Origin: Escherichia coli
GTDB taxonomy: Bacteria; Pseudomonadota; Gammaproteobacteria; Enterobacterales; Enterobacteriaceae
Assembly: GCF_024700885.2 (NCBI RefSeq)
Contig: NZ_CP117016.1
Direction: 5' to 3' (one strand)
DNA: 64,000 bases
Notes under the pieces: generated by a model
What the model saw: the letters and a program-made list of their open reading frames with translations, nothing else
Databases searched by the model: none
What the model was told of the DNA's origin: nothing
Part shown: piece after piece, positions 4,495 through 55,653 of the stretch
How the letters are laid out: each line of letters begins with the position of its first letter
How positions within the stretch are numbered: position 1 is the first letter of the stretch
Translations under genes and position numbers: made by a program

Positions 4495-5001
4495 TTCACT
4501 ACCGCCCTTTCGGGTGGCCTCCTGCTGTTCTGAGGGTGCAGAAATCCCTCCGGTTAAGGATTAAATTTTTAACAGTGCTAAATTTAATTATTCAGTTTTG
4601 GATTTTGTCACCCTGCGTATCCGCGCTTTCCCGTTACGCTCAATCTGAATTAGCTTTTCTATATTTTTTCGCCTTTCCCGTTCCTCCTGGCGCAAGAGCC
4701 TTACATCATCTGCCAGTCTGGTTTCTCTTTTCGCCACAGAGAGCATCCAGTCAAATGGCTCCACAACTGCACCGCAGATTTTACAGCGGACCTGACGCTC
4801 TTTTTCGTCAACCCGGACAGAAGCGTGATGGCAATATGGTCTTTCCGATGGCTCATAAAGAAAATTAACCTGATTACGAGGGTCATCCTCTTTTATCGGA
4901 AATAAAACGATATTGCTTAACTAATCCTCTGGTTTTATTTCCATGCTCCTCTCCTTTGATGCGAATGCCAGCGGCAATTGAAGCCTGATAGCTAATTTCA
5001 C

Positions 5002-12151: not shown

Positions 12152-12355
12152 ATGAGCAGCTTATTTTTAACCGAAGATGAATTGCTAATATTAACGGGCT
12201 GCAAATATGCAAGCCACCAGCGAAAATGGTTAATGGAAAACGGGCTTCCGTTCTATACCAATCGTAGTGGCAAACCGATTGTCAGCCGGGATCTATTTAC
12301 CTGCAATAAAACTTTACCACCACGCGAGGTAGAGCCGAATTTTGGTGCGATCTGA
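12152..12355 (+). CDS. xis: excisionase (Xis-like)
   Basis: 67-aa ORF immediately upstream of and overlapping (ATGA-type) the integrase start. Confidence 0.6.
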   Translation: MSSLFLTEDELLILTGCKYASHQRKWLMENGLPFYTNRSGKPIVSRDLFTCNKTLPPREVEPNFGAI

Positions 12356-13380
12356 TGGGAAGACGAAGGAAAAATCCTGAACACGAAAAATTACCTCCAA
12401 ATGTATACCCAAATAAATATAGTTATGTATGGAAACCAACATCCAGAGAATCTGTAACACTAACCGCCATCAAGGATGGTTTAGCTGCTTTATGGAAAAA
12501 GTATGAGGAAACTGTAAATAATCGCGATCGTGCAATGACATTCGGTCGCTTGTGGGAAAAATTCCTCGCCAGCGCCTGTTACAGTGACCTTAGCCCAAGA
12601 ACACAAAAAGATTATCTGCAACATCAAAAAAAGTTGCTTGCCGTATTCGGTAAGGTACCAGCGGATTCCATAAAACCAGAACACATCCGTCGATACATGG
12701 ACAAAAGAGGGGAACAGAGCAAAACGCAAGCCAACCATGAAAAAAGCAGTATGTCCCGCGTTTACAGTTGGGGATATGAGCGAGGGTACGTGAAGGTTAA
12801 CCCATGTGCAGGTGTAAGTAAATTCAAGGCCAAAAACCGCGAACGATATGTAACCGACAAAGAATACCAGGCAGTATTAAGCGTTGCACCTCTTCCTGTT
12901 TTTATCGCAATGGAAATTGCCTATCTGTGTGCAGCGAGGGTTTCCGATGTGTTATCGCTGAAATGGGAGCAGATTGGAAACGACGGGATCTTTATCCAGC
13001 AAGGGAAAACAGGGAAAAAACAGATAAAAGCATGGAGTCCACGATTACAGGCGGCGATCGAAAAAGCAAAACAGTTACCAACATCCGCCTATGTAATCAG
13101 CAATCAATACGGCAACCGATATATGTACAAAGGCTTTAACGAAATGTGGGTAGAAGCAAGAAATCGCGCAGGCAAAATTTCAGGTATTTTAACCGACTTC
13201 ACCTTTCATGATCTGAAGGCGAAAGGAATTTCAGACTATGAAGGAAGCAGTCGGGATAAGCAACTTTTCTCTGGTCACAAAACCGAGGGGCAAGTGCTAA
13301 TCTATGACAGGAAGGTTAAAGTTTCACCGACACTTGATGTCCCGTTACCTGAAAATATTCCAAGAAAATATTCCAAGTAA
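12355..13380 (+). CDS. int: lambda-family tyrosine integrase
   Basis: 341-aa ORF starting MGRRR... like lambda Int; transcribed toward the tRNA-Ser 3' end, which lies 52 bp downstream. Confidence 0.85.
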   Translation: MGRRRKNPEHEKLPPNVYPNKYSYVWKPTSRESVTLTAIKDGLAALWKKYEETVNNRDRAMTFGRLWEKFLASACYSDLSPRTQKDYLQHQKKLLAVFGKVPADSIKPEHIRRYMDKRGEQSKTQANHEKSSMSRVYSWGYERGYVKVNPCAGVSKFKAKNRERYVTDKEYQAVLSVAPLPVFIAMEIAYLCAARVSDVLSLKWEQIGNDGIFIQQGKTGKKQIKAWSPRLQAAIEKAKQLPTSAYVISNQYGNRYMYKGFNEMWVEARNRAGKISGILTDFTFHDLKAKGISDYEGSSRDKQLFSGHKTEGQVLIYDRKVKVSPTLDVPLPENIPRKYSK

Positions 13381-13432
13381 TTCCAAGTGTGATTTTTGTC
13401 ACTGACTTAATGATGTATAAGTGATTGAATTT

Positions 13433-13522
13433 TGGCGGAGAGAGGGGGATTTGAACCCCCGGTAGAGTTGCCCCTACTCCGGTTTTCGAGACCGGTCCGT
13501 TCAGCCGCTCCGGCATCTCTCC
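13433..13522 (-). tRNA. serU: tRNA-Ser (anticodon CGA)
   Basis: Reverse complement reads GGAGAGATGCCGGAGCGGCTGAACGGACCGGTCTCGAAAACCGG...CTCTCTCCGCCA, a 90-nt class II tRNA with anticodon CGA and encoded CCA. Confidence 0.9.
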
Positions 13523-13615
13523 GTTCAGATGGTTGCCATGATGCCAGGAAATTTGGCATTTTAACAGTCCCTGTCCGTGCAATTTTGTTCAAGTGACGAG
13601 TTTGCGAGCAAAACG

Positions 13616-14413
13616 ATGATTAAGTGGCCCTGGAAAGTACAAGAATCAGCACATCAAACTGCCCTTCCCTGGCAGGAAGCACTATCGATCCCCCTTTTAA
13701 CGTGTCTGACGGAACAGGAACAAAGCAAATTAGTCACTCTTGCCGAACGTTTTTTACAGCAAAAGCGGCTTGTTCCTTTACAGGGCTTTGAACTGGATTC
13801 ATTAAGAAGCTGCCGGATAGCACTTCTATTTTGCCTGCCCGTTCTGGAGTTAGGACTGGAATGGCTGGATGGTTTTCATGAAGTCTTAATTTATCCTGCG
13901 CCATTTGTGGTCGATGACGAATGGGAAGACGATATCGGTTTGGTGCATAACCAACGTATTGTTCAGTCAGGTCAGAGCTGGCAGCAAGGGCCTATCGTTT
14001 TGAACTGGTTGGATATACAAGATTCTTTTGATGCTTCTGGTTTTAACCTGATTATTCATGAAGTCGCTCATAAGCTGGACACCCGTAATGGCGATCGCGC
14101 CAGCGGAGTTCCCTTTATTCCGTTGCGTGAGGTTGCTGGCTGGGAACACGATCTTCATGCTGCAATGAACAATATTCAGGAAGAAATCGAATTAGTTGGC
14201 GAGAATGCGGCGAGCATCGATGCTTATGCTGCCAGTGATCCTGCTGAATGTTTTGCCGTACTTTCTGAATATTTCTTTAGCGCCCCAGAACTTTTTGCTC
14301 CTCGTTTCCCTTCATTGTGGCAACGTTTCTGCCAATTTTATCAACAAGATCCTTTGCAGAGACTGCATCACGCTAATGATACAGACTCGTTTTCGGCGAC
14401 GAATGTTCATTAA
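13616..14413 (+). CDS. mtfA: Mlc titration factor A (MtfA/YeeI)
   Basis: 265 aa from internal Met [14 protein letters not shown]...; HEVAHKLD zinc-peptidase-like motif; conserved serU-mtfA-asnT synteny of E. coli. Confidence 0.85.
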
Positions 14414-14513: not shown

Positions 14514-14589
14514 TCCTCTGTAGTTCAGTCGGTAGAACGGCGGACTGTTAATCCGTATGTCACTGGTTCGAGTCCAGTCAGAGGAGCCA
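14514..14589 (+). tRNA. asnT: tRNA-Asn (GUU)
   Basis: 76-nt TCCTCTGTAGTTCAGTCGGTAGAACGGCGGACTGTTAATCCGTATGTCACTGGTTCGAGTCCAGTCAGAGGAGCCA; its 3' end is the HPI attachment site. Confidence 0.95.
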
Positions 14590-14750: not shown

Positions 14751-16013
14751 ATATCCCTTACCGACGCAAAAATCCGCACCCTCAAGCCTTCTGATAAACC
14801 CTTTAAAGTCTCCGATTCTCACAGTCTGTATCTGCGGGTCAAGCCGGGTGGCTCCCGCCACTGGTATCTCAAATACCGTATTAGCGGTAAAGAATCCCGC
14901 ATTGCGCTGGGTGCCTATCCAGCCATCTCCCTGTCTGATGCGCGACAGCAACGTGAAGGTATCCGTAAAATGCTGGCGCTGAATATCAACCCGGTACAGC
15001 AGCGGGCTGCTGTACGTGGCTCACGAACACCGGAGAAAGTTTTTAAAAACGTGGCGCTGGCGTGGCATAAAAGTAACAGGAAATGGTCGCAGAACACCGC
15101 CGACCGTCTGCTTGCCAGCCTGAACAATCACATCTTTCCGGTCATCGGGAACCTACCTGTATCAGAACTTAAACCCCGTCATTTCATTGACCTGCAGAAA
15201 GGGATCGAGGAAAAAGGTCTGCTGGAGGTTGCGTCCCGCACACGGCAGCACCTGAGTAACATAATACGCCATGCGGTCCATCAGGAGTTAATCGATACGA
15301 ACCCTGCAGCAAACCTTGGCGGCGTGACCACACCTCCTGTCAGACGGCACTATCCTGCCCTGCCGCTGGAGCGGCTGCCTGAACTGCTTGAACGTATTGG
15401 GGCATATCATCAGGGCCGTGAACTGACCCGGCATGCCGTTCTGCTGATGCTGCATGTGTTCATTCGCTCCAGTGAACTGCGTTTCGCCCGCTGGTCAGAG
15501 ATTGATTTCACAAACCGAGTCTGGACGATACCCGCGACGCGAGAACCCATTATTGGCGTGCATTATTCCGGCCGCGGGGCAAAAATGCGAATGCCGCATA
15601 TCGTCCCCCTCTCAGAACAGTCCATCGCCATTCTGAAACAGATTAAGGATATCACCGGTAATAATGAACTGATCTTCCCCGGCGACCATAACCCGTATAA
15701 GCCAATGTGTGAAAACACGGTCAATAAGGCACTGCGGGTGATGGGTTACGACACGAAAAAGGATATCTGCGGTCACGGCTTCCGGGCAATGGCATGCAGT
15801 GCGCTGATGGAATCGGGTTTATGGGCAAAGGACGCAGTAGAACGCCAGATGAGTCATCAGGAGCGCAATACCGTGCGCATGGCTTATATTCATAAGGCAG
15901 AGCACCTGGAAGCCCGCAAAGCGATGATGCAGTGGTGGTCGGATTATCTGGAAGCATGCCGAGAATCTTATGCACCGCCTTATACAATTGGTAAAAATAA
16001 GTTTATCCCATAG
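14751..16013 (+). CDS. int: P4-family tyrosine integrase of the High-Pathogenicity Island; no canonical start codon in frame
   Basis: Frame open from stop at 14733 to 16013; in-frame N-terminal region ...SLTDAKIRTLKPSDKPFKVSDSHSLYLRVKPGGSRHWYLKYRISGKESRIALGAYPAIS... is the P4-type arm-binding domain, but there is no ATG/GTG/TTG before the Met at 14970 (codon 14751-14753 is ATA). The 5' coordinate is therefore uncertain. Confidence 0.75.
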   Translation: MSLTDAKIRTLKPSDKPFKVSDSHSLYLRVKPGGSRHWYLKYRISGKESRIALGAYPAISLSDARQQREGIRKMLALNINPVQQRAAVRGSRTPEKVFKNVALAWHKSNRKWSQNTADRLLASLNNHIFPVIGNLPVSELKPRHFIDLQKGIEEKGLLEVASRTRQHLSNIIRHAVHQELIDTNPAANLGGVTTPPVRRHYPALPLERLPELLERIGAYHQGRELTRHAVLLMLHVFIRSSELRFARWSEIDFTNRVWTIPATREPIIGVHYSGRGAKMRMPHIVPLSEQSIAILKQIKDITGNNELIFPGDHNPYKPMCENTVNKALRVMGYDTKKDICGHGFRAMACSALMESGLWAKDAVERQMSHQERNTVRMAYIHKAEHLEARKAMMQWWSDYLEACRESYAPPYTIGKNKFIP

Positions 16014-43014: not shown

Positions 43015-45036
43015 ATGAAAATGACACGGCTTTATCCTCTGGCCTTGGGGGGATTATTGCTCCCCGCCATTGCTAATGCCCAGACTTCACAGCAAGACGA
43101 AAGCACGCTGGTGGTTACCGCCAGTAAACAATCTTCCCGCTCGGCATCAGCCAACAACGTCTCGTCTACTGTTGTCAGCGCGCCGGAATTAAGCGACGCC
43201 GGCGTCACCGCCAGCGACAAACTCCCCAGAGTCTTGCCCGGGCTCAATATTGAAAATAGCGGCAACATGCTTTTTTCGACGATCTCGCTACGCGGCGTCT
43301 CTTCAGCGCAGGACTTCTATAACCCCGCCGTCACCCTGTATGTCGATGGCGTCCCTCAGCTTTCCACCAACACCATCCAGGCGCTTACCGATGTGCAAAG
43401 CGTGGAGTTGCTGCGAGGCCCACAGGGAACGTTATATGGCAAAAGCGCTCAGGGCGGGATCATCAACATCGTCACCCAGCAGCCGGACAGCACGCCGCGC
43501 GGCTATATTGAAGGCGGCGTCAGTAGCCGCGACAGTTATCGAAGTAAGTTCAACCTGAGCGGCCCCATTCAGGATGGCCTGCTGTACGGCAGCGTCACCC
43601 TGTTACGCCAGGTTGATGACGGCGACATGATTAACCCCGCGACGGGAAGCGATGACTTAGGCGGCACCCGCGCCAGCATAGGGAATGTGAAACTGCGTCT
43701 GGCGCCGGACGATCAGCCCTGGGAAATGGGCTTTGCCGCCTCACGCGAATGTACCCGCGCCACCCAGGACGCCTATGTGGGATGGAATGATATTAAGGGC
43801 CGTAAGCTGTCGATCAGCGATGGTTCACCAGACCCGTACATGCGGCGCTGCACTGACAGCCAGACCCTGAGTGGGAAATACACCACCGATGACTGGGTTT
43901 TCAACCTGATCAGCGCCTGGCAGCAGCAGCATTATTCGCGCACCTTCCCTTCCGGTTCGTTAATCGTCAATATGCCTCAGCGCTGGAATCAGGATGTGCA
44001 GGAGCTGCGCGCCGCAACCCTGGGCGATGCGCGTACCGTTGATATGGTGTTTGGGCTGTACCGGCAGAACACCCGCGAGAAGTTAAATTCAGCCTACGAC
44101 ATGCCGACAATGCCTTATTTAAGCAGTACCGGCTATACCACCGCTGAAACGCTGGCCGCATACAGTGACCTGACCTGGCATTTAACCGATCGTTTTGATA
44201 TCGGCGGCGGCGTGCGCTTCTCGCATGATAAATCCAGTACACAATATCACGGCAGCATGCTCGGCAACCCGTTTGGCGACCAGGGTAAGAGCAATGACGA
44301 TCAGGTGCTCGGGCAGCTATCCGCAGGCTATATGCTGACCGATGACTGGAGAGTGTATACCCGTGTAGCCCAGGGATATAAACCTTCCGGGTACAACATC
44401 GTGCCTACTGCGGGTCTTGATGCCAAACCGTTCGTCGCCGAGAAATCCATCAACTATGAACTTGGCACCCGCTACGAAACCGCTGACGTCACGCTGCAAG
44501 CCGCGACGTTTTATACCCACACCAAAGACATGCAGCTTTACTCTGGCCCGGTCGGGATGCAGACATTAAGCAATGCGGGTAAAGCCGACGCCACCGGCGT
44601 TGAGCTTGAAGCGAAGTGGCGGTTTGCGCCAGGCTGGTCATGGGATATCAATGGCAACGTGATCCGTTCCGAATTCACCAATGACAGTGAGTTGTATCAC
44701 GGTAACCGGGTGCCGTTCGTACCACGTTATGGCGCGGGAAGCAGCGTGAACGGCGTGATTGATACGCGCTATGGCGCACTGATGCCCCGACTGGCGGTTA
44801 ATCTGGTCGGGCCGCATTATTTCGATGGCGACAACCAGTTGCGGCAAGGCACCTATGCCACCCTGGACAGCAGCCTGGGCTGGCAGGCGACTGAACGGAT
44901 GAACATTTCCGTCTATGTCGATAACCTGTTCGACCGTCGTTACCGTACCTATGGCTACATGAACGGCAGCAGCGCCGTCGCGCAGGTCAATATGGGTCGC
45001 ACCGTCGGTATCAATACGCGAATTGATTTCTTCTGA
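43015..45036 (+). CDS. fyuA: TonB-dependent yersiniabactin/pesticin outer-membrane receptor FyuA (Psn)
   Basis: 673-aa ORF with N-terminal signal peptide, plug and beta-barrel pattern, C-terminal aromatic residue (...NTRIDFF). Confidence 0.92.
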   Translation: MKMTRLYPLALGGLLLPAIANAQTSQQDESTLVVTASKQSSRSASANNVSSTVVSAPELSDAGVTASDKLPRVLPGLNIENSGNMLFSTISLRGVSSAQDFYNPAVTLYVDGVPQLSTNTIQALTDVQSVELLRGPQGTLYGKSAQGGIINIVTQQPDSTPRGYIEGGVSSRDSYRSKFNLSGPIQDGLLYGSVTLLRQVDDGDMINPATGSDDLGGTRASIGNVKLRLAPDDQPWEMGFAASRECTRATQDAYVGWNDIKGRKLSISDGSPDPYMRRCTDSQTLSGKYTTDDWVFNLISAWQQQHYSRTFPSGSLIVNMPQRWNQDVQELRAATLGDARTVDMVFGLYRQNTREKLNSAYDMPTMPYLSSTGYTTAETLAAYSDLTWHLTDRFDIGGGVRFSHDKSSTQYHGSMLGNPFGDQGKSNDDQVLGQLSAGYMLTDDWRVYTRVAQGYKPSGYNIVPTAGLDAKPFVAEKSINYELGTRYETADVTLQAATFYTHTKDMQLYSGPVGMQTLSNAGKADATGVELEAKWRFAPGWSWDINGNVIRSEFTNDSELYHGNRVPFVPRYGAGSSVNGVIDTRYGALMPRLAVNLVGPHYFDGDNQLRQGTYATLDSSLGWQATERMNISVYVDNLFDRRYRTYGYMNGSSAVAQVNMGRTVGINTRIDFF

Positions 45037-51345: not shown

Positions 51346-51421
51346 TGGCTCCTCTGACTGGACTCGAACCAGTGACATACGGATTAACAGTCCGCCGTTC
51401 TACCAACTGAACTACAGAGGA
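51346..51421 (-). tRNA. asnW: tRNA-Asn (GUU), variant copy with one D-loop substitution
   Basis: Reverse complement is identical to the other three Asn tRNAs except AGTTGGTAG instead of AGTCGGTAG in the D-loop. Confidence 0.93.
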
Positions 51422-53169: not shown

Positions 53170-53245
53170 TCCTCTGTAGTTCAGTCGGTAGAACGGCGGA
53201 CTGTTAATCCGTATGTCACTGGTTCGAGTCCAGTCAGAGGAGCCA
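53170..53245 (+). tRNA. asnU: tRNA-Asn (GUU)
   Basis: 76-nt sequence identical to asnT. Confidence 0.95.
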
Positions 53246-55577: not shown

Positions 55578-55653
55578 TCCTCTGTAGTTCAGTCGGTAGA
55601 ACGGCGGACTGTTAATCCGTATGTCACTGGTTCGAGTCCAGTCAGAGGAGCCA
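55578..55653 (+). tRNA. asnV: tRNA-Asn (GUU)
   Basis: 76-nt sequence identical to asnT. Confidence 0.95.

Follow-up and report, generated by a model that had tools for sequence, protein, structure and literature searches.

The stretch of DNA analysed here (the window) comprises 64,000 nucleotides of contig NZ_CP117016.1 of Escherichia coli (assembly GCF_024700885.2) and is identical to that of E. coli MLI114 (NZ_CP117013.1). According to the MLI114 annotation, a complete-looking lambdoid prophage of 44.5 kb lies to the left of the tRNA gene serU, and its right end (attR) is contained in the window (Table 1). The prophage genes run from int and those of the DUF4224 protein and an exonuclease to the tail fibre genes and, at the far end, a cargo gene. 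The cargo gene, which encodes a sensor-domain diguanylate cyclase, is located just inside attL and outside the window (43219-44550 of the MLI114 locus, L001). In O157 Sp14, the T3SS effector genes espJ and tccP are found at this place. The DUF4224 gene occupies the position expected of an excisionase/RDF. The serU gene itself is intact because the phage supplies its 3' 62 nt. Immediately to the right of mtfA is the yersiniabactin High Pathogenicity Island (window 14514-51421, ybtS through fyuA), which is inserted at a tRNA-Asn gene (14514-14589) and has its own P4-type integrase (14751-16013; ATT start according to PGAP). A single gene, mtfA, is thus flanked by two different integrative elements. 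Three further tRNA-Asn genes are present at 51346-51421 (-), 53170-53245 (+) and 55578-55653 (+), among yeeO, cbl and nac. An asn tRNA cluster is usual in E. coli, and its members are alternative integration sites for islands.

Table 1. Features at the right end of the prophage and at serU (window coordinates)
Feature	Position	Strand	Remarks
DUF4224 protein, 67 aa	12152..12355	+	Directly upstream of int
int, lambda-type tyrosine integrase, 341 aa	12355..13380	+	ORF; TAA at 13378-13380
int as flagged 'frameshifted' by PGAP	12355-13405		Also in EDL933 (L008), ST131 (L020), 2013C-4974 (L019)
Two perfect 13-bp units AAAATATTCCAAG	13352..13377	+	Unit number polymorphic (1-4) among E. coli prophages
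Arm-type site 1 (candidate)	13355..13364	+	ATATTCCAAG; 8-mer ATTCCAAG at 13357-13364
Arm-type site 2 (candidate)	13368..13377	+	ATATTCCAAG; 13 bp past site 1
Arm-type site 3 (candidate)	13378..13387	+	TAATTCCAAG; 10 bp past site 2
Phage-derived 16 bp adjoining serU 3' end	13417..13432	.	ATAAGTGATTGA vs native downstream ATAAGTCATTGA
attR copy of attL/attR identity block (att core), 62 bp	13433..13494	.	attL/attR comparison
serU anticodon loop	13484..13490	-	Flanked by 5-bp stem 13479-13483 / 13491-13495
tRNA-Ser(CGA), serU	13433..13522	-	ARAGORN; 3' end at 13433

The first-pass annotation had described a tandem repeat of 13-14 bp with a third TTCCAAG over the int stop codon. Direct reading of 13351-13387 gave exactly this arrangement, GAAAATATTCCAAG AAAATATTCCAAG TAA TTCCAAG. 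The exact unit is 13 bp long; AAAATATTCCAAG is present twice and is followed by a 10-bp partial copy, TAATTCCAAG (13378-13387). The 13-bp periodicity was recovered by Tandem Repeats Finder at 13351-13377 (2.1 copies, 100% match), together with an overlapping period-10 array at 13370-13388 (1.9 copies). An invariant 8-mer, ATTCCAAG, starts at 13357, 13370 and 13380 with a spacing of 13 and 10 bp, and the three copies straddle the int stop codon. Site 1, the outermost of the trio, lies inside the int coding sequence. Site 2 ends at the final sense codon of int, and the first three bases of site 3, which is nearest to the core, are the stop codon TAA. In terms of lambda, site 1 is the analogue of P'3 and site 3 that of P'1. 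TTCCAAG occurs four times in the 64-kb window versus 9.1 times expected from shuffles, and three of the four copies fall inside 30 bp at the repeat; this clustering is not due to chance. A terminator or sib-like retroregulation element was considered for the repeat and rejected, as neither terminator-like nor promoter-like sites were detected there when 13100-13700 was scanned. A coding repeat with a protein function was also rejected because the Int tail past about residue 330 is unconserved in homologues and the units are read in differing frames between alleles. Elsewhere in int, a weak and low-scoring 11-bp tandem, AAAACAGAGAA, was noted at 13006-13029 (2.2 copies, 84% match), and it is probably compositional.

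The att core was delimited by comparison of attL with attR and by alignment against empty serU loci, the latter as the first-pass annotation had proposed. A second copy of serU 13433-13494 (62 bp, 100% identical) represents attL and lies 44.4 kb leftward, outside the window (L001 45141-45202). The identity block starts at the serU 3' end and reaches into the 5' strand of the anticodon stem, which is the extent characteristic of tRNA-gene integrases with a crossover in the anticodon loop. The anticodon loop is therefore a putative overlap (crossover) region, and the stem halves would be inverted core-type half-sites. The tRNA fragment likewise stops just beyond the anticodon loop in all of the five Int relatives described below. 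Empty serU loci, for example that of K-12, align with the window from 13417 on, so that the match begins 16 bp before the tRNA gene. Within these 16 bp there is a one-mismatch match to the IHF consensus (13418-13430, minus strand). The stretch 13417-13494 also serves as the attP core in several unrelated serU phages (ev099, mEp332, PhiR70_1 and SerU-LTIIb). The 16 bp resemble the native host sequence (attL flank, L001 45203-45219), and unrelated serU phages with lambda/HK97-type integrases have this stretch in common. This common stretch suggests either an older, longer attP/attB homology or an exchange of att cores between phages.

The attP of the prophage was rebuilt by joining the phage DNA of the attR side with that of the attL side, and positions were given relative to the centre of the anticodon loop. 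ATTCCAAG was found five times in the 44.5-kb prophage, and all of the copies are in the att arms, no more than about 130 bp from the att core copies. The tandem trio on the int-proximal arm is at -130 to -100. On the distal arm, an inverted copy (site 4) lies just inside attL at +47 to +54 and a direct copy (site 5) at +112 to +119 on the attL side; none was found elsewhere in the prophage. Perfect matches to the IHF consensus, WATCAANNNNTTR, were found at +25 and +80, and a match with a single mismatch at -69, all of these being consensus matches only. The two perfect matches sit between the core, site 4 and site 5, and the first of them has no mismatch in the diverged O157 arm either. On the distal arm, GAAAAATCAA(N4)TTA occurs twice, 55 bp apart (L001 reverse-complement 4774-4794 and 4829-4849); both fit the IHF consensus, bracket the inverted arm site and are recognisable in the diverged O157 arm. 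A crude shuffle test on the attP alone was only moderately significant, with 17 of 2000 shuffles reaching at least four copies of some 8-mer; it is a weak test because A/T-rich low-complexity 8-mers inflate the null. Lambda (J02459) was then read in the same orientation as the window attP, and its order is P'3, P'2, P'1, H', core, H2, inverted P2, H1 and direct P1. Its P'3 (AAATCATTAT on the other strand) overlaps the TAA stop of int, with P'2 lying 11 bp and P'1 another 10 bp further on, and a binding region for Int within the final 41 bp of the gene is annotated in the GenBank record. The window prophage thus has the order and orientation of lambda attP, with a tandem trio by int, an inverted inner distal site and a direct outer one.

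The integrase encoded by the prophage is related to lambda Int. Its residues 1-313 align with residues 1-338 of lambda Int (phmmer; structures 1z1b and 5j0n; E = 6e-13), and the N-terminal signature MGRRR..LPPNxY, which reads MGRRR..LPPNVY here, is common to the two proteins. The catalytic tyrosine is Y317, and the conserved part stops near residue 328-330. The non-conserved tail, E333-K341, is encoded by the repeat. The Pfam domains reported were SAM-like and catalytic only, and the lambda arm-binding N-domain family was not reported at E <= 0.01. Therefore, the homology of the N-domain rests on the full-length alignment with lambda Int. By that alignment, Int appears to combine an arm-binding N-domain with core-binding and catalytic domains.

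The first-pass annotation had also proposed a comparison with related prophages. Int relatives at 48-65% identity were collected by tblastn, and five of them were examined. All five have two to four tandem copies of an 8-mer of their own type at or just past the int stop, followed by the tRNA-derived core. In mEp390, ATGGCGAA is in tandem at +13, +26, +37 and +44 from the end of the int stop, and its distal copies are inverted at +224 and direct at +289. In Salmonella 118970_sal3, TTTTCTCA is found at +37, +50 and +60 in tandem, with an inverted copy at +215 and a direct one at +278. The same motif, TTTTCTCA, is at +36, +49 and +59 in Klebsiella ST101-KPC2phi6.3, of which only the prophage end (attR) was available. 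ZF40 carries ATTAGGAA in tandem at +31 and +43, inverted at +232 and, with one mismatch, direct at +296. In Stenotrophomonas BUCT709, ATTCTAAG is at -10, +3 and +14 across the TGA stop and, with one mismatch, inverted at +167. Its distal copies are degenerate, and visual inspection suggested a direct copy with two mismatches. The five relatives thus keep the layout and a tandem spacing of 12-13 and then 10-11 bp while the motif changes, and four different motifs are present among them. In mEp390, 118970_sal3 and ZF40, the relatives having both distal copies, the gap from the inverted to the direct copy is 63-65 bp. Between the window Int and these relatives, the N-domains are 30-48% identical versus 53-65% for the remainder of Int. 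The closest N-domain, that of BUCT709, goes with the closest motif, ATTCTAAG versus ATTCCAAG.

Alleles of the repeat were searched among complete E. coli genomes (n = 5426) using the native two-unit sequence as well as synthetic versions with one and three units. The int end was present in 1151 of the 5426 genomes (about 21%), and perfect alleles of one, two, three and four units were confirmed in fetched examples. The two-unit allele, found in the window, EDL933 and Sakai, is carried by about 1045 genomes (91%) and encodes an Int of 340/341 aa with the tail ...IPRKYSK. The one-unit allele (strain 121; 344 aa; tail ...IPSNSKCDFCH) is present in roughly 50 genomes, and this count is only a range (45-53) because the BLAST identity bands mix one- and three-unit genomes when hits are split. 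Three units were found in 26 genomes (for example F8797 and AVS0193), where a longer tail runs to a later stop and gives an Int of 359/360 aa. Four units were found in a single genome (Z1323HEC0355), whose Int of 358 aa also has a longer tail and ends in ...SNSKCDFCH like that of the one-unit allele. The alleles are clade-associated and look clade-stable rather than hypervariable; 24 of the 26 three-unit genomes are O157:H7-type, including TW14359, EC4115, SS17 and SS52. One, two and three units were all found among O157:H7-lineage prophages with a common private SNP, and unit changes have therefore taken place in recent times. In prophages from IMG/VR, the SNP types in the units lie, with a single exception, in the AAA spacer and not in ATATTCCAAG. 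Some lineages carry diverged units such as GATAATATTCCAAG. These unit variants were drawn from a search with the five-member Int alignment, which returned only near-identical E. coli prophages (94-100%). The 13 + 10 bp spacing must predate the lineage because it is common to relatives with unrelated motifs, and the two-unit state is old because some lineages carry diverged units. On these comparisons, the two-unit, three-site state is judged to be ancestral and family-typical rather than derived from a one-unit ancestor. As for the slippage duplication with a changed Int C-terminus that the first-pass annotation had considered, this idea is borne out in part by the alleles of one to four units and their differing tails. 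The notion of a derived duplication did not hold, since the two-unit form is the majority and family-typical state.

From these results, we propose that the ATTCCAAG sites at 13355-13387 are the int-proximal arm-type sites of the attP of a lambda-like heterobivalent integrase, comparable to P'1-P'3, with a probability of roughly 0.8. This reading agrees with the integrase-binding sites suggested in the first-pass annotation. It is based on the lambda-like five-site topology, with the 8-mer recurring inverted and direct on the far arm, and on the layout that the five relatives keep despite motif turnover. The small N-terminal domain of Int would bind these sites and the two further copies on the other attP arm, which are now located at the inner edge of attL, outside the window and at a distance of 44 kb. 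Its C-terminal domains would bind the core, namely the anticodon stem-loop of serU. IHF-type bends may then fold the arms onto the core to form a tetrameric intasome that could perform integration and excision. The int frame runs into the arm because there is no earlier stop codon, and the sites therefore double as codons for the non-conserved C-terminal tail. Replication slippage or unequal exchange may occasionally remove or add a 13-bp unit, which would give rise to the alleles of one to four units, and the Int tail would change along with the arm-site number each time. Arm-type sites beside int are ordinary and expected for a lambda-family integrase. The element is a new, uncharacterised member of a well-known type.

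The alternative of a recent slipped-strand duplication, which would have left int as a frameshifted, inactive pseudogene and would have no role in DNA binding, is suggested by the existence of perfect one- to four-unit alleles, by the shift of the reading frame that a 13-bp unit brings about and by the annotation. Of five two-unit genomes inspected, four (MLI114, EDL933, an ST131 strain and 2013C-4974) have an int labelled 'frameshifted' by PGAP; in the fifth, an O111:H8 genome with an N-terminally truncated int, the flag was incomplete only. However, PGAP called the rarer one-, three- and four-unit forms intact, and the curated Sakai annotation lists the two-unit gene as an intact integrase (ECs_2773). 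The flag is probably an artefact of the choice of reference proteins, which would be minority-allele proteins, and many others among the roughly 1000 two-unit genomes may be affected. A pseudogene is further at odds with the majority status of the two-unit allele, with the three-site spacing in relatives with unrelated motifs and with the diverged units in some lineages. Even the one-unit allele still has two tandem sites. The frame change is confined to Int residues past about 336, beyond the conserved region and far from Y317, and the prophage with the same two-unit allele in Sakai, Sp14, excises. Its integrase was judged intact, and mitomycin C treatment yielded low levels of its circular attP junction, which was seen only after induction (Asadulghani et al. 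2009, PMC2669165). Inactivation by a recent duplication is thus highly improbable.

Two further explanations concern the function of the repeat. The tandem copies might be binding sites of the DUF4224 protein as a Xis-like directionality factor instead of Int. The position of its gene immediately upstream of int fits this idea, and short tandem direct repeats in a single att arm are the usual targets of Xis-type proteins. However, Xis/RDF sites would be restricted to one arm, between an arm-type site and the core, whereas the motif occurs on each arm and in either orientation, in the P1/P2/P' pattern of lambda, and varies together with the N-domain of Int; this reading is considered very unlikely. 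In lambda attP, moreover, the Xis sites are on the arm opposite to the tandem trio. The 13-bp units might also be a phase-variable contingency locus, in which frequent, reversible changes of unit number would tune the stability of the prophage by switching the Int tail and the arm-site number. The range of one to four perfect units and the three alleles inside the clonal O157:H7 prophage lineage would be compatible with such a locus. Against it, one allele predominates, the three-unit genomes form an O157:H7-type group as expected of clade-stable alleles, two units are a very short tract for high-frequency slippage and no phenotype is known. We regard phase variation as highly improbable. Arm-type sites of Int are thus retained as the preferred reading of the repeat. 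A bolder extension of it, which is unlikely and is offered as a speculation, is that the units act as a mutable switch of the P'-like arm, that strains differ heritably in how firmly the prophage, with its effector or other cargo genes, is locked into serU and that the 'frameshifted' label hides a working integrase in about a thousand genomes. If so, unit loss would remove the outermost site (the P'3 analogue) and unit gain would add arm sites, each rewriting the Int tail. In lambda, P'3 is needed for integration but not for excision.

In the literature, we found Sp14 excision data and reviews, and no description of arm-type sites of the serU, Sp14 or CP-933U integrases. This analysis provides a motif and a full candidate attP map (five copies of ATTCCAAG, IHF-like sites and an anticodon-loop core) for a very common integrase of the serU/Sp14 type, which includes that of the O157:H7 prophage with espJ and tccP. 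The 'frameshifted' label on the commonest int allele matters for the prediction of prophage mobility. The polymorphism of one to four units is a small natural series of arm-site number and could serve to study arm-site stoichiometry. Unit number is also a possible lineage marker, as with the three units of the O157:H7 group that has TW14359 and EC4115.

Among known systems, O157 Sp14/CP-933U is similar in its integrase (about 95% DNA identity), in its serU site and in the two-unit repeat, which is present in both Sakai and EDL933. The prophages are otherwise mosaic or diverged, including the distal arm, and the cargo is a diguanylate cyclase here versus espJ/tccP there. The Sp14 distal arm is 62% identical (70/113 positions); site 5 is retained (8/8), whereas site 4 is imperfect (7/8; ATTCCAAA). 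The attPs of mEp390, ZF40, 118970_sal3 and BUCT709 (Int identity 48-61%) have the same succession of tandem sites and a tRNA 3' fragment. Their target tRNAs differ, that of mEp390 and ZF40 appearing to be a tRNA-Leu(UAA) fragment, and BUCT709 is the only one with sites that overlap the int stop as in the window prophage. Like lambda attP, that of the window prophage has three tandem direct sites at or over the int stop and, on the other arm, an inverted inner site and a direct outer site. Matches to the IHF consensus, as candidate bending sites, lie between its arm sites and the core. The two integrases are homologous over their full length, yet only about 22% identical. The arm motif differs, being ATTCCAAG here versus (C/A)AGTCACTAT in lambda, as does the spacing (13 + 10 bp versus 11 + 10 bp). 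A further difference from lambda is that two of the sites are perfect tandem units, of which strains carry different numbers. In place of a 15-bp intergenic core there is a 62-bp tRNA-Ser 3' fragment, and the trio is therefore about 45 bp further from the presumed crossover than in lambda. It would be 100-130 bp away if the crossover is in the anticodon loop, compared with 63-84 bp in lambda.
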